Shown one piece after another: positions 995-6,137 of a stretch of DNA of 64,000 bases. Under the pieces are notes generated by a model. It was not told where the DNA came from. It saw nothing but the letters and a program-made list of their open reading frames with translations, and ran no database searches. The stretch is from positions 90,852 through 154,851 of the forward strand of contig QBZD01000002.1 in NCBI GenBank assembly GCA_003282485.1, given 5' to 3'. Position 1 is the first letter of the stretch, and every line of letters starts with the position of its first letter. This DNA is from Pelagibacteraceae bacterium AG-333-C14 (GTDB lineage Bacteria > Pseudomonadota > Alphaproteobacteria > Pelagibacterales > AG-422-B15). A program made the position numbers and the translations under genes.

Positions 995-1082
995 TTAATA
1001 AAAATAGAGTATTTCGGCTTCACTTAATAATAAAAATTATAAAAATTTGACTTTTTTGAATAAATAAGGCATTTCACTGTTC

Positions 1083-1118
1083 ATGATTGTTTATACACAT
1101 CATCATATTCATATCTAA
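1083..1118 (+). promoter_or_regulatory. Candidate histidine leader peptide ORF (MIVYTHHHIHI) upstream of hisS-hisZ-hisG
   Basis: atg att gtt tat aca cat cat cat att cat atc taa can be read directly. Four of the last six sense codons are His, and the ORF lies 90 nt upstream of hisS. A 9-bp hairpin (1119-1127 with 1138-1146) starts 1 nt after the stop. There is no clear SD and no canonical terminator. Confidence 0.4.
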
Positions 1119-1208
1119 GTTTGCTGAACAAAAAGCGTCAGCGAACAACAACCCCTTTTTATATTAAATAAACTAACTTTGTAGTATCGTACTAACGATT
1201 GGAATCGT

Positions 1209-2600
1209 ATGACTAAGAATAACAATAAACCCAAGGCTATTTTACCTAGAGGGTTTAAAGACAGTGAGAAACAACTCCTGACTCTCAGAAAAATAGTTAC
1301 TGAGGTAATAGAGGAAGAGTGTCAAAAATTTGGATTTATTGAATTAGAAACTTCATCCATTGAATACACTGATAGTCTGGGAAAGTTTTTGCCTGATATA
1401 GATCGACCAAGTGGAGGAGTTTTTTCGTTACAAGATGAAGATGGTCAATGGCTATCATTACGATATGACCTTACAGCTCCTTTAGCACGATATGTTGCTC
1501 AGAATTATCAAAATTTAGTGAAGCCATTTAAAAGATATCAATCCGGAATAGTATGGAGGAATGAAAAGCCAGGGCCTGGAAGATTTAGAGAGTTCTTACA
1601 ATTTGATGCAGATGTTATCGGAATTCAATCAAATCTAATCGATGCTGAGTTATGCGTCATGGTTGTAAATATTTTGAGAAGACTTGGTTTAAATGATTCT
1701 CAATTTAAAATTAAATATTCAAATAGAAAAATATGGACAAGCCTTTTTGAGAAAATAAAGGCTTCGAAAGAAGTTGAATCAAAAATTCTTAGAGCAGTAG
1801 ATAAAAAGGATCGTCTAGGTGATGAAGGTGTTAAAGAGTTATTATGTGAGGGTAGGAAAGATAAATCTGGTGATTTTATGGAAGGTGTAGGCCTTGATAA
1901 TGAACAAGCATCAATGATTTTAGACTTTATGAACGACCAGAAGCAAACGAGTGATGATATTGATGAGTTTAACTCTTATTTAGAGAATTTTGCAGATTAT
2001 CCGATTTCATTTGATCCATCCATTGTAAGAGGATTGGATTACTATACAGGCATGATTTTTGAAGCTGAACTATTAATCGATGTAAAAAATACAAAAGGTG
2101 AAACAATAGTTTTTGGATCAGTGGCTGGAGGAGGAAGATATGACAAACTGATATCAAGATTTGGGAAAGAGGACGTTCCCGCTACTGGCATTTCTGTTGG
2201 TGTTGACAGGCTTATTGTCGCTCTAGAGCAGTTGGATCTCATTAAAGCCAAATCGAGACCTTTAGTAATTGTAGCAAATTTAGGAGATAATAATTTGTCT
2301 GAGTATATTCGAATGGCATCTGAAATTAGAGATGCAGGCATGGCCTGCGAGATTTCTTTTGGCTCAAAAAATTTAGCTAAGCAACTTAAATATTGCGATC
2401 GCAAGCAAGCTGATGCAGTTGTAATTGCAGGTGATGATGAAATTAAAAATAATAAAATATCACTTAAAGATTTAAAAGAGGGAAGTGAGATTTCAAAAAA
2501 TATAACTGGACGTGAAGAATGGAAAGAAACTAAAGCAGGTCAAAAAGAAGTAATTAGAGAGGATTTAGTAAGCACTCTAAAGGAAATACTAAAAATTTGA
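1209..2600 (+). CDS. hisS: Histidyl-tRNA synthetase (class II)
   Basis: 463 aa. It has HisRS motifs: LPRGFKD near the N-terminus, LRYDLTAPLARY, FKRYQSGIVWRNEKPGPGRFREFLQFDADVIG, GGGRYD, and a C-terminal anticodon-binding domain. Confidence 0.95.
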   Translation: MTKNNNKPKAILPRGFKDSEKQLLTLRKIVTEVIEEECQKFGFIELETSSIEYTDSLGKFLPDIDRPSGGVFSLQDEDGQWLSLRYDLTAPLARYVAQNYQNLVKPFKRYQSGIVWRNEKPGPGRFREFLQFDADVIGIQSNLIDAELCVMVVNILRRLGLNDSQFKIKYSNRKIWTSLFEKIKASKEVESKILRAVDKKDRLGDEGVKELLCEGRKDKSGDFMEGVGLDNEQASMILDFMNDQKQTSDDIDEFNSYLENFADYPISFDPSIVRGLDYYTGMIFEAELLIDVKNTKGETIVFGSVAGGGRYDKLISRFGKEDVPATGISVGVDRLIVALEQLDLIKAKSRPLVIVANLGDNNLSEYIRMASEIRDAGMACEISFGSKNLAKQLKYCDRKQADAVVIAGDDEIKNNKISLKDLKEGSEISKNITGREEWKETKAGQKEVIREDLVSTLKEILKI

Positions 2601-2603
2601 GCT

Positions 2604-3731
2604 ATGTCACTACAGGAATTAAATATTAGATTAAAAGATTATTTTATTGAGTTAGGATTTCAATATGTAGAGCTTCCTTTAGTTCATGATTCTGACATTT
2701 TTTATGAAACATCGGGAGAAGAAATAAGAAGTCAGATGTATTCTTTTATAGATGGTTCAGGCAAGGAAAAATGTCTGAGACCAGATATGACGATCCCTAC
2801 GTGTCAAAGTTTTATTAAAAGTGATGATAAAATAAATGAAGCTAATTTATGCTATAGTGGACCAGTATTTAGGTCAACCAATGGAATAAATGATACATCA
2901 ATTGAATTAAACCAATCAGGTGTTGAAATTATTTTTACAGAAAAAAAGCTAAAAACTATTTATGAAAAAGATATATATACGCTTAAAACGGCAGTCAAAA
3001 TTCTAGAAAAATTAAATATTAATGAATACCAAATTAAAATAGGCAGTCTAAACCTCTTTAATAGTTTTATAAGTTATTTAGATTTACCGATCAGGTGGAA
3101 ACAAAGAATTGTCAGGCATTTTTTTAGAAGAACATATTTTGATAGTTTGTTAAATCGATTAGGGCAAGGTGTCGGTTATGACATTTTGAAAAAGGATGAA
3201 ATTATCAATGAAAAACTAGGTTTGAATGCCAATTCAAATGGAAATTTGGCTGATCTAATTAATTCTAATAGCAATTCTGGTTCAGGCTCAAGGACAGTTG
3301 AAGAAATCGTCAAACGATTTCAGGAGAAAAGTGAAAACATCGTCTCTGAAAGCAATGGAAAACAAATTGTAAATCTGATTAAAAATTTTTTAGGTTTAAA
3401 CGCTTCTCTTGATACTTTTCCGAATATTTTAAGAGAGTTTGTAAGTGATCAAAAGCTTGATTTTTTTAAAAAAGAGATTGATGGCATTGAAGAATTCAAG
3501 AACGCCGTCTCATCTGAAATGGATATATCTAAAATTAATTTTAACAATGACTTTGGACATTCAATTGAATTTTATGATGGTGTTATGTTCGAAATCTATG
3601 ATCAATCAGGCAATTTAAAGATAATAACTGGTGGAAGATACGATAAGTTACTTAATATTTTAGGGTCCAGAAACAATCTGTCAGCTATAGGCTTTGCAAC
3701 AAATAATAATAATTTAAGTAAAATTATATAG
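2604..3731 (+). CDS. hisZ: ATP phosphoribosyltransferase regulatory subunit (HisRS paralog)
   Basis: 375 aa HisRS-like protein without an anticodon-binding domain (CLRPDMTIPTCQSF, GGRYDKLL). It sits between hisS and a short-form hisG, with spacers of 3 and 2 nt. Confidence 0.85.
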   Translation: MSLQELNIRLKDYFIELGFQYVELPLVHDSDIFYETSGEEIRSQMYSFIDGSGKEKCLRPDMTIPTCQSFIKSDDKINEANLCYSGPVFRSTNGINDTSIELNQSGVEIIFTEKKLKTIYEKDIYTLKTAVKILEKLNINEYQIKIGSLNLFNSFISYLDLPIRWKQRIVRHFFRRTYFDSLLNRLGQGVGYDILKKDEIINEKLGLNANSNGNLADLINSNSNSGSGSRTVEEIVKRFQEKSENIVSESNGKQIVNLIKNFLGLNASLDTFPNILREFVSDQKLDFFKKEIDGIEEFKNAVSSEMDISKINFNNDFGHSIEFYDGVMFEIYDQSGNLKIITGGRYDKLLNILGSRNNLSAIGFATNNNNLSKII

Positions 3732-3733
3732 TC

Positions 3734-4435
3734 ATGAAATTTGAAAATAAATTAAGGATAGGATTACCTAGTAAAGGCAGATTAAGAAAAGACATGGAGA
3801 AACTATTTCTAGATAAAAATATTACTTTTGAAAATCTTGTAAATGATAGAGATTATATTGGTACAATAAAGGGACTAAGAGATACAGTTCTATATTTTTT
3901 AAGTGCTAAAGAAATTACCAATAGACTTGATGAGGGATCAATTCATGCAGGTTTAACTGGTGATGACCTCGTACAAGAAAAAATTTTCAATTTTAATTCA
4001 AAAATAACAAAGGATCTGGAGTTAACTTTTGGAAAAGCGGATCTGGTTGTTGCTGTACCGGATATCTGGATTGATGTGATGACGATGGCTGATTTGGAAG
4101 AAGTGAGCAATAATCACAGAGATAAATATTCAAAAAGATTGCGTGTAGCAACTAAATATAAGAATTTAACAAATAATTTCTTTTCTAAATGTGGAGTTGT
4201 TGACTATAGAACTGTTGAAAGTGATGGCTCTACTGAAAGTGCGCCTTTCAATGGTTTTTCAGAAATCATCACTGATATAACATCAACAGGTGAAACACTT
4301 AGGGCTAACAATTTAAGAGTTCTTGATGATGGCATAATCCTGAAATCATCAGCAAATATCTTTTCTTCAAAAGTTGCAGAGTGGGATAACGAAATAGAAA
4401 GTAATTATAAAAACTTTATTAATAAGTTTGAATAA
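3734..4435 (+). CDS. hisG: ATP phosphoribosyltransferase, short (HisZ-dependent) form
   Basis: 233 aa. It reads LRIGLPSKGRL at the N-terminus and ITDITSTGETLRANNL (PRPP-binding signature). It lacks the long-form C-terminal regulatory domain. Confidence 0.9.
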   Translation: MKFENKLRIGLPSKGRLRKDMEKLFLDKNITFENLVNDRDYIGTIKGLRDTVLYFLSAKEITNRLDEGSIHAGLTGDDLVQEKIFNFNSKITKDLELTFGKADLVVAVPDIWIDVMTMADLEEVSNNHRDKYSKRLRVATKYKNLTNNFFSKCGVVDYRTVESDGSTESAPFNGFSEIITDITSTGETLRANNLRVLDDGIILKSSANIFSSKVAEWDNEIESNYKNFINKFE

Positions 4436-4464
4436 AAAAAACCCGGCTAGGCCGGGTTTTTTTT
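4434..4464. terminator. Bidirectional intrinsic terminator between convergent hisG and groEL
   Basis: aaaaaaaa-cccggc-tag-gccggg-tttttttt. This is a 6-7 bp GC stem (4441/4442-4447 with 4451-4456/4457) and a 3-nt loop, flanked by an A-tract and a T-tract, so it works in both orientations. Confidence 0.8.
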
Positions 4465-4484
4465 GAGTTTATCGTGAACGATTA

Positions 4485-6137
<1,653 letters not shown>

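Follow-up and report, generated by a model that had tools for sequence, protein, structure and literature searches.

The hisS-hisZ-hisG locus and its leader

The DNA analyzed here, 64,000 nucleotides (nt) from the Pelagibacteraceae bacterium AG-333-C14 (called the window; positions are counted from its first letter), contains the three genes hisS, hisZ, and hisG. They are preceded by a spacer, 1047-1208, that includes a tiny open reading frame (ORF) rich in histidine codons and a hairpin, P1, and this spacer is our subject. The genes are all on the plus strand: hisS at 1209-2600, hisZ at 2604-3731, and hisG, in its short form, at 3734-4435. As had been noted in an earlier reading of the window made from its letters alone (the sequence-only reading), only 3 nt separate hisS from hisZ and 2 nt separate hisZ from hisG. 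The products of hisS and hisG matched TIGR00442 at 374 bits and TIGR00070 at 156 bits, both above the curated NCBIfam cut-offs (287 and 76 bits, respectively). The best matches of the middle ORF were only to hisZ models, at 264 bits, which is under the equivalog cut-off of 384. The same gene order, hisS-hisZ-hisG, is also present in related loci.

For comparison we collected every locus with a HisS at least 60% identical to that of the window (range, 60 to 100%), drawing on a HisS scan of one genome per species, a metagenome scan, and contigs encoding HisS homologues that are 60 to 72% identical. This gave 37 loci with 25 distinct spacers from about 11 lineages, which we call the type-A set; counts out of 25 below refer to these distinct spacers. 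In the scan of one genome per species, the HisS of the window was 100% identical to that of the Pelagibacteraceae single-cell genome AG-894-A11, which assigns the window to SAR11. The element described below is present in every locus of the set (37/37). Its conserved block begins abruptly at TTGAC(T/A), 1047-1052 in the window, and further upstream the lineages cannot be aligned. The features of the leader and of the genes behind it are as follows.

1047-1052, plus strand: -35-like box TTGACT at the 5' edge of the conserved block; TTGAC is invariant (25/25)
1070-1075, plus strand: CATTTC at the expected -10 position (17-nt spacer), a poor match to TATAAT, placed by geometry
1083-1118, plus strand: leader ORF, MIVYTHHHIHI-stop, 11 codons plus TAA, with no Shine-Dalgarno (SD) sequence and possibly leaderless
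1098-1106 and 1110-1112, plus strand: putative sensor codons His6-His7-His8 and His10
1119-1146, plus strand: hairpin P1, arms 1119-1127 and 1138-1146 with an A-rich loop, 1128-1137; it abuts the stop codon
1147-1155, plus strand: spacer AACAA and then CCCC, in a G-poor tract; the invariant ACCCC is at 1151-1155
1156-1160, plus strand: T5 run, lineage specific and outside the conserved element
1182-1208, plus strand: conserved block (T)AGTAT(C) at 1182-1188 plus a tentative hairpin, P2, just 5' of the hisS start
1209-4435, plus strand: hisS-hisZ-hisG, the presumed regulated unit, from family matches and an order kept in related loci
4433-4465, bidirectional: canonical intrinsic terminator, AAAAAAAACCCGGCTAGGCCGGGTTTTTTTT, between hisG and the convergent groEL

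A conserved leader ORF with clustered histidine codons

The leader ORF can be read directly from the sequence, from the ATG at 1083 to the TAA ending at 1118, as first described. Its codons are ATG ATT GTT TAT ACA CAT CAT CAT ATT CAT ATC TAA, and the gap from its stop to the hisS ATG (1209) is 90 nt. The sequence-only reading had conceded that such an ORF could arise by chance in AT-rich DNA; its rarity makes this unlikely. On both strands of the 64 kb it is the sole ATG-initiated ORF of 6 to 30 codons that has at least four His codons in six or an HHH run; first-order Markov, composition-matched simulations gave an expectation of 0.07 such ORFs for the whole window. When related AT-rich loci totalling 475 kb were scanned, ORFs with at least three His codons in five turned out in almost every case to be hisS leaders, and no other leader ORFs with runs of one amino acid were found in the intergenic parts of the window.

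In all 25 distinct type-A spacers the ORF is exactly 11 codons long, with the pattern M-x4-H-H-(H)-x-H-I-stop; in metagenomes the type-A lineage met most often is the one with MITLLHHHYHI. It is free of insertions and deletions in the alignment; the flanking spacer has several. Codon 1 is ATG in 25/25. Codons 2 to 5 vary freely (I/F/L; V/N/K/I/T; Y/F/I/L/M; T/K/L), as does codon 9 (I/Y/L/S/A). The His codons behave differently: codon 6 is CAT in 25/25; codon 7 is CAT in 20/25 and CAC in 5/25; codon 8 is CAT or CAC in 21/25 and encodes Asn, Cys, or Thr in the other 4; and codon 10 is CAT in 24/25 and CGT in 1/25. Codon 11 encodes Ile in 23/25, and the stop is TAA in 20/25 and TGA in 5/25. Thus, His6 and His7 change only synonymously, from CAT to CAC, and the amino acid is invariant. 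A translated sensor ORF is expected to change only synonymously at its His codons and freely at the others while its start, length, and frame stay fixed, and this is the pattern seen; neither a protein-binding RNA motif nor a functional peptide would predict it. The sequence-only reading had asked for a short ORF with at least three clustered His codons in orthologous spacers and for covariation of the hairpin; the 11-codon ORF kept in 25/25 spacers and the four compensatory pairs of P1 described below support its proposal of a His sensor. In our judgment, a role of the ORF as a functional leader that senses His is distinctly probable.

The HH motif and the H-I-stop at the C terminus are kept, as they would be if the ORF encoded a functional His-rich micropeptide (e.g., a metal-binding one) or were a chance ORF within a conserved promoter or untranslated region (UTR). 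But the N-terminal half shows no conservation at the peptide level, the ORF invariably comes right before the cognate synthetase and biosynthesis genes, and distant relatives have a different His-rich ORF in the same place (see below). With a chance expectation as low as that given above, we hold both of these possibilities to be highly improbable.

No SD sequence precedes the leader ORF in any type-A lineage. A TTGnnn hexamer starts 35 to 36 nt before the leader ATG in 11/11 type-A lineages, and alignment columns C24 and A25, in the CATTTC region, are invariant. In standard promoter geometry, a -35 box is followed by a 17-bp spacer, a -10 box, and 6 to 7 bp to the +1 position. The fixed distance of the TTGAC box therefore places the ATG at the predicted start of transcription. 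From this geometry, the chances are about even that the leader ORF is leaderless, with transcription starting at or beside its ATG; such a start would account for the missing SD sequence. Searches for TTGAC-N-GGCATTT as a recurrent promoter type and for TTGACW-N17-TANNNT promoters were both uninformative.

At six loci (L016, L117, L111, L116, L115, and L118) base pairs are possible between the start codon and the first His codons, as AUGUUUA-N4-UAAACAU. The version of this pairing, P0, in the window (1083-1105) is AUGAUUGU...ACA(C)AUCAU, and, if the RNA is leaderless, P0 would be a 5'-terminal hairpin. As a general 5' AUG-His hairpin P0 was rejected: it is limited to six lineages, is weak (-3 to -3.7 kcal/mol), and is absent from the L014/L015 lineage.

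A hairpin that abuts the stop codon

P1 in the window has 9 bp including one G-U pair, as had been reported, and its first base comes directly after the stop codon. Its 5' arm, 1119-1127, is GTTTGCTGA, that is, GUUUGCUGA, and its 3' arm, 1138-1146, is TCAGCGAAC, that is, UCAGCGAAC. In 25/25 sequences P1 starts on the base after the stop, with a stem of 9 to 11 bp. All 96 cells of the lineage-level alignment are standard pairs (100% paired); when the 3' partner was slid by 1 to 3 columns as a control, pairing fell to 27 to 51%. Compensatory double changes occur in 4 of the 9 pairs (C-G to U-A, G-C to A-U, A-U to G-C, and U-A to C-G). P1 was also the only consensus helix obtained with RNAalifold, both from the 25 sequences and from 11 sequences extended 70 nt into hisS. 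A hidden terminator/antiterminator or a long-range helix was rejected on these results, and so was a pairing of ACCCC with the GGG that lies in the conserved hisS codons for PRGF, which is not among the RNAalifold helices. The support for P1 thus comes from covariation and not from energy. Of the analyses that had been proposed, the single-sequence fold, run on 1060-1215, was unexceptional (z = -0.6), and the covariation analysis came out in favor of P1.

The energy of P1 is -7.4 to -13 kcal/mol, and because of its G-U pairs it is 2 to 6 kcal/mol weaker on the reverse strand, which fixes the strand. The gene upstream encodes a major facilitator superfamily (MFS) transporter; it is on the minus strand, starts at ~993, and is divergent, which excludes P1 as a terminator for a gene upstream. 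Facing this gene there is a Met-rich minus-strand ORF with ATG ATG ATG, complementary to the CAT run, MNMMMCINNHEQ (1112-1074), and one could suppose that the conserved element controls the MFS gene from that strand. Besides the weakening of P1, the most frequent substitution, CAT to CAC, leaves the plus-strand peptide as it is but turns Met into Val on the minus strand, and the distant type-B relatives keep His ORFs without any MFS gene. The substitution pattern and the G-U pairs rule this element out for all practical purposes.

P1 and ACCCC are conserved RNA or sequence features to which no partner has been assigned. They could belong to a noncoding element of the hisS 5' UTR that is bound by a protein (e.g., HisRS regulating its own gene, as in thrS) or, T-box-like, by tRNA-His, the ORF being incidental. 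Such an element is very unlikely, since the start codon, the TAA/TGA stop, the 11-codon length, and the synonymous-only changes of His6 and His7 point to translation. The loops of P1 and P2 contain no GUG, the cognate anticodon, that might serve as a mimic, and neither a T-box nor any other Rfam family, including His_leader (RF00514), matched 900-1400 at E values up to 10. Six related loci likewise had no Rfam leader match at E values up to 1.

The leading edge of a ribosome is ~12 to 13 nt 3' of the first base in its A site. The last His codon of type A is 6 nt from P1. With this footprint, a ribosome whose A site holds His10 would reach no more than the first 3 to 4 nt of the 5' arm, and full opening of P1 would take a ribosome at the stop codon. 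The claim that a ribosome stalled on the last His codons covers the 5' arm therefore stands only in part: it holds for those 3 to 4 nt during a stall at His10, and it fails for a stall at His6 to His8, which leaves P1 intact.

Sequences between P1 and hisS

Five nt after P1, gap-free in 25/25 sequences, is the pentamer ACCCC, whose alignment columns (A105 and C106-109) are invariant; in the window, CAACAACAACCCC ends at 1155. ACCCC may serve as a loading site for the termination factor Rho or as the hybrid of a pause site. The T5 run that follows, pointed out in the sequence-only reading, proved to be lineage specific, and the conserved element is ACCCC at 1151-1155. T5 is replaced by TTATACC in L118 and by TATATAAA in L014, L015, and L119; lineages other than that of the window have CCCCUUAUACC or CCCCCUAUAUAAA. 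We also considered ACCCCTTT as a repeated genomic signal and rejected it, as its copy number in the window is not above expectation (1 versus 1.9).

A stable stem (-7 to -13 kcal/mol) followed in the window by a T5 run invites the interpretation that P1 and the U-rich stretch are a degenerate terminator, which would terminate weakly and which a ribosome at His10 or at the stop would block. The closeness of the last His codon to the hairpin, 6 nt here and 0 nt in type B, fits such intrinsic attenuation. However, the U run starts 9 nt after the P1 stem and is not conserved, the invariant C-rich ACCCC would occupy the hybrid, there is no antiterminator, and the timing would result in termination under both conditions. 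In addition, the terminator scan of 900-1400 found no terminator-like site between the leader and hisS, yet the operon ends with a textbook terminator, located between hisG and groEL (4485-6134, minus strand, convergent with hisG). Because that terminator shows that the organism uses them, the lack of one in the leader is meaningful, and we judge a degenerate terminator to be quite unlikely. The sequence-only reading had found neither a canonical terminator/antiterminator pair nor an obvious SD sequence; the scan and RNAalifold confirm the first point, and the type-A lineages confirm the second.

In the conserved block at 1182-1188, AGTA is invariant (25 sequences). P2 is formed by AUCGU (1186-1190) with ACGAU (1195-1199); alternatively, ACGAU can pair with AUCGU at 1204-1208, which leaves GGA in the loop. 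The 3' arm of P2 changes together with its 5' arm in other lineages (GUAUC/GAUAC, AGUACU/AGUACU, and AGUAU/AUACU). P2 can form in most lineages but is tentative, its energies being weak and individually not significant.

A second tiny ORF, ATGAATGTAAATTATGAATAA (MNVNYE-stop) or ATGAATGTATGA (MNV-stop), overlaps the hisS start codon at L014:2970-2994, in L015, L120, and L123, and at ~225-244 in L118. It is absent from the window. Where present, it may provide translational coupling.

A second architecture in distant relatives

A further set, type B, is made up of 40 AT-rich (25 to 32% GC) metagenome loci that have enough upstream sequence and whose HisS is 45 to 53% identical. In 40/40 of these a tRNA-His(GUG) gene precedes hisS, its CCA end lying 4 to 8 nt before the hisS ATG. 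The layout also occurs in two single-cell genomes that are labelled Pelagibacteraceae. The loci are these.

L017 and L026: single-cell genomes with the type-B layout
L037-L100: further type-B loci (e.g., L096:678-900, L085:106-320, and L044:2088-2290)

The type-B leader ORF has 3 to 5 His codons in 20 to 27 codons and is ~50 nt before the tRNA gene; examples of its peptide are MIENLKIITVLNAKHHFAHARLLLS, MINKNRIFRSTHRHHFHAGCMLAI, and MIKKYISTHRHHPHAEHALS. Its last His codon abuts (0 nt) a conserved hairpin of 6 to 7 bp (-9 to -10.6 kcal/mol), through which the ORF reads to a stop just past it. An AT-rich spacer of ~50 nt follows the hairpin, with an invariant ATAAA ~12 nt before tRNA-His. A TTGnnn box was found 34 to 36 nt before the ATG in 15/24 type-B leaders. 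The occurrence throughout these AT-rich lineages, in both arrangements, of a His-codon ORF that abuts a hairpin before hisS is strong independent support for a function. In high-GC alphaproteobacterial hisS loci (the Hyphomicrobiales-like L018-L021 and L030), there was no His-rich ORF.

Because the type-B tRNA is cut out between the leader and hisS, the signal of the leader would reach hisS only during transcription. This bears on whether the same His-codon sensor might have a posttranscriptional output, either by shielding the 5' end of the mRNA from decay or by acting on hisS initiation through the P2/SD region. The ORF is probably at the extreme 5' end of the RNA, the tentative P2 and its alternative with GGA in the loop adjoin the hisS start, and leaderless poly-Cys ORFs of mycobacteria do act at translation. 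On the other side, excision of the tRNA means that an effect on stability or translation would not be passed on to hisS in type B. Pairing between the His region and the hisS start was not conserved and was no better than that at 55 control gene starts, and RNAalifold gave no conserved long-range helix. Sequestration of the ribosome-binding site (RBS) by the His-codon region was accordingly rejected, the fraction of controls that paired at least as well being 0.11 to 0.95 in the 11 lineages. We regard a posttranscriptional output as unlikely, although it is the least improbable of the alternatives treated here.

Several other arrangements were observed in these loci. In a type-B subfamily (L066, L077, L091, L098, and L100), the His codons form an extra hairpin, CAYUC(U)-CAC-(A)GARUG, just 5' of the main hairpin and with a His codon in its loop; U-to-C and A-to-G changes between loci are compensatory. 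The high-GC loci have CTTGCC-N17-CTACCA, probably an alphaproteobacterial-type promoter, ~60 to 100 nt before hisS. It overlaps an inverted repeat, GGCTGC-TACCAC-GCAGCC, whose loop happens to contain CCAC, complementary to the anticodon loop of tRNA-His. In type-A genomes tRNA-Phe(GAA) and tRNA-His(GUG) are 5 nt apart beyond the divergent MFS gene, at positions that would be past the left edge of the window.

L001:1445-1602: tRNA-Phe/tRNA-His pair
L013:1390-1547: tRNA-Phe/tRNA-His pair
L016:1449-1606: tRNA-Phe/tRNA-His pair

Freshwater-like type-B loci have the order tRNA-Phe, leader, tRNA-His, hisS. The two orders suggest that the MFS gene plus a rearrangement separated the tRNA from hisS in type-A genomes.

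Proposed mechanism

Taken as a whole, the evidence is probably best explained if the spacer at 1047-1208 is a conserved cis-regulatory leader of hisS-hisZ-hisG that is read by the ribosome. From the established biology of attenuation, the speed of the ribosome on the four His codons (6 to 8 and 10) would report the supply of charged tRNA-His. With plentiful His-tRNA, the ribosome would finish quickly, open P1 when at the stop codon, and leave. The C-containing, G-poor RNA at the 5' end (CAUCAUCAU...), P1, and the ACCCC tract would then be naked and could let in a negative factor, with Rho as the likeliest candidate, bringing transcription to a premature end. P1 might be a pause hairpin, 10 to 11 nt before the CCCC/U junction, that holds the polymerase during the decision. 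With scarce His-tRNA, the ribosome would be parked on the His codons, cover the ~25 nt immediately 5' of P1 (in type B, of its hairpin), and so mask the entry region; RNA polymerase would read into hisS-hisZ-hisG, and the charging enzyme would increase along with the first step in making histidine.

The sequence-only reading had raised a Rho-dependent mechanism, or control of translation initiation, as speculation. Our assignment of the output step to Rho-dependent termination is tentative, with a probability that we would put somewhat below even. Rho is nearly universal in Proteobacteria. The leader ORF has 6 C versus 2 G, and in its CAUCAUCAU tract every codon junction is a UC dinucleotide; of the bases in 1147-1181, 7 are C and 1 is G. 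Among 78-nt segments of the window, the leader ranks at the 95th percentile for C/G ratio (2.25), which is suggestive but not distinctive of a Rho utilization (rut) site. The fixed spacing of hairpin, 5 nt, and CCCC puts the CCCC/U junction 10 to 11 nt after the stem, as in pauses that depend on a hairpin, for instance the his pause. Both the spacing to the CCCC/U junction and the C/G ratio are compatible with the Rho model, and neither is diagnostic of it. A frameshift at hungry codons, through P1 and ACCCC, was also considered: each lineage has an open alternative frame, but this is +1 in some and +2 in others, and the candidate was rejected.

Several results weigh against the mechanism just described or against parts of it. 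Because a stall on His6 to His8 leaves P1 intact, simple occlusion fails to explain the role of P1, and RNAalifold, applied to the 25 and to the 11 sequences, gave no alternative pairing that could transmit the position of the ribosome. The rut-like signal is modest: the 35-nt tract has one G, and longer G-free runs occur elsewhere in the window. His8 is replaced in 4 sequences and His10 in 1, so that a pair of neighboring His codons and a third one are apparently enough. A consensus promoter scan of 900-1400 was empty, and the -10 position reads CATTTC, a poor match, which leaves the leaderless start to geometry. Finally, the conserved TAGTAT 20 to 25 nt before hisS could be a second promoter that is independent of the leader.

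We can also ask whether the two architectures belong together. It is possible, though on balance rather doubtful, that the Pelagibacterales have an undescribed family of terminator-less, probably leaderless His-codon sensor ORFs that comes in two architectures and acts by ribosome masking of the entry of a termination factor or by some other mechanism. Type A would have the layout ORF-stop-hairpin-ACCCC-hisS-hisZ-hisG; in type B the ORF would run through the hairpin and be followed by the tRNA-His gene and hisS. If such a family exists, type B would have a single signal, read by the ribosome, govern the tRNA, its synthetase, and the first enzyme of the biosynthesis, and the decision would be made by a parked ribosome that masks the entry of a termination factor or by another mechanism, not by alternative RNA folding.

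Comparison with known leaders

Of the features of a classical his or trp attenuator, the leader has the short ORF with clustered cognate codons; it has neither the intrinsic terminator nor the antiterminator pairing. It resembles enterobacterial hisL (Rfam RF00514) and the trp, leu, thr, and phe leaders in these codons and in preceding genes of the same pathway, and in hisL the speed of the ribosome on the cognate codons is the signal, as we presume it to be here. In contrast to hisL-type leaders, the SAR11 leader lacks a terminator hairpin with a U tract and a mutually exclusive antiterminator, and has a single hairpin that abuts the stop. It has 4 His codons instead of 7 in a row, it has no SD sequence, and it precedes hisS-hisZ-hisG, not hisGDCBHAFI.

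The sequence-only reading knew of no equivalent that controls the synthetase plus HisZ/HisG in such an alphaproteobacterium. That statement needs qualification, since in the Bacillus cereus group His leader peptides have been predicted in front of hisZ and of a paralogue of hisS (Naville and Gautheret 2010, PMC2965389; PMC9413887). As in SAR11, a His-codon ORF there comes before a gene of the HisRS family and the HisZ/HisG first-step enzyme; but these Firmicutes leaders have terminator/antiterminator hairpins, were found through intrinsic terminators, and have no sequence similarity to the SAR11 leader. It does hold for the group itself: in the literature, including a survey of structured RNAs of Pelagibacter (PMC2704228), we found no His leader described for SAR11 or other Alphaproteobacteria. 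Our searches of the literature on leader peptides, attenuation, leaderless starts, and Rho in SAR11/Pelagibacter returned nothing that bears on this locus.

Aminoacyl-tRNA synthetase genes are attenuated through leaders with codons for their own amino acid elsewhere as well. In E. coli, pheM is the leader of pheST. An alphaproteobacterial case is the uORFC-8-2 motif, a Cys-codon upstream ORF (uORF) before cysS in the Rhodobacterales (PMC8632094). In both cases an intrinsic terminator stem competes with structures that overlap the uORF, and the SAR11 leader has no such stem.

Mycobacteria have leaderless poly-Cys sensory small ORFs (sORFs) with 2 to 4 consecutive cognate codons; in the case that was studied, the downstream RBS is sequestered in a duplex, which the stalled ribosome breaks up (Canestrari et al., 10.1101/834739). 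They share with the SAR11 ORF their tiny size and may share with it a place at the very 5' end of an operon transcript, without a 5' UTR. No RBS-sequestering duplex, however, is detectable in the SAR11 leader.

Leader ORFs also set Rho-dependent attenuators, among them tnaC in E. coli and mgtL, corL, and speFL in Salmonella and E. coli. There, as here, the RNA after the leader ORF contains C, is poor in G, and has no intrinsic terminator, and a stalled ribosome is thought to deny access to Rho (for Rho-dependent leader-ORF attenuators, see PMC6386406). Leaders of this type sense free Trp, ornithine, Mg2+, or proline, partly via nascent-peptide arrest or riboswitches, whereas the signal of the SAR11 leader would be the supply of His-tRNA at hungry codons, and the role of Rho in it is putative. 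In our view the leader is a variation on ribosome-mediated attenuation, for which we favor transcriptional control of the Rho type or the occlusion type.

Significance

No bacterial group in the ocean is more abundant than SAR11, which is noted for how few transcription factors it has. A few riboswitches aside, little has, to our knowledge, been learned about how these bacteria control their amino acid supply. Judging from the literature that can be searched, the hisS leader would be the first leader-peptide control element described for SAR11. With one ORF, one hairpin, and one invariant pentamer in 126 nt, it would be a compact test case for attenuation without a terminator/antiterminator switch. 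Type B, in which a His-codon ORF precedes a tRNA-His gene that is nearly fused to hisS, is an unusual regulatory unit in itself. Both elements can be traced in metatranscriptomes and thus could report histidine limitation in situ.

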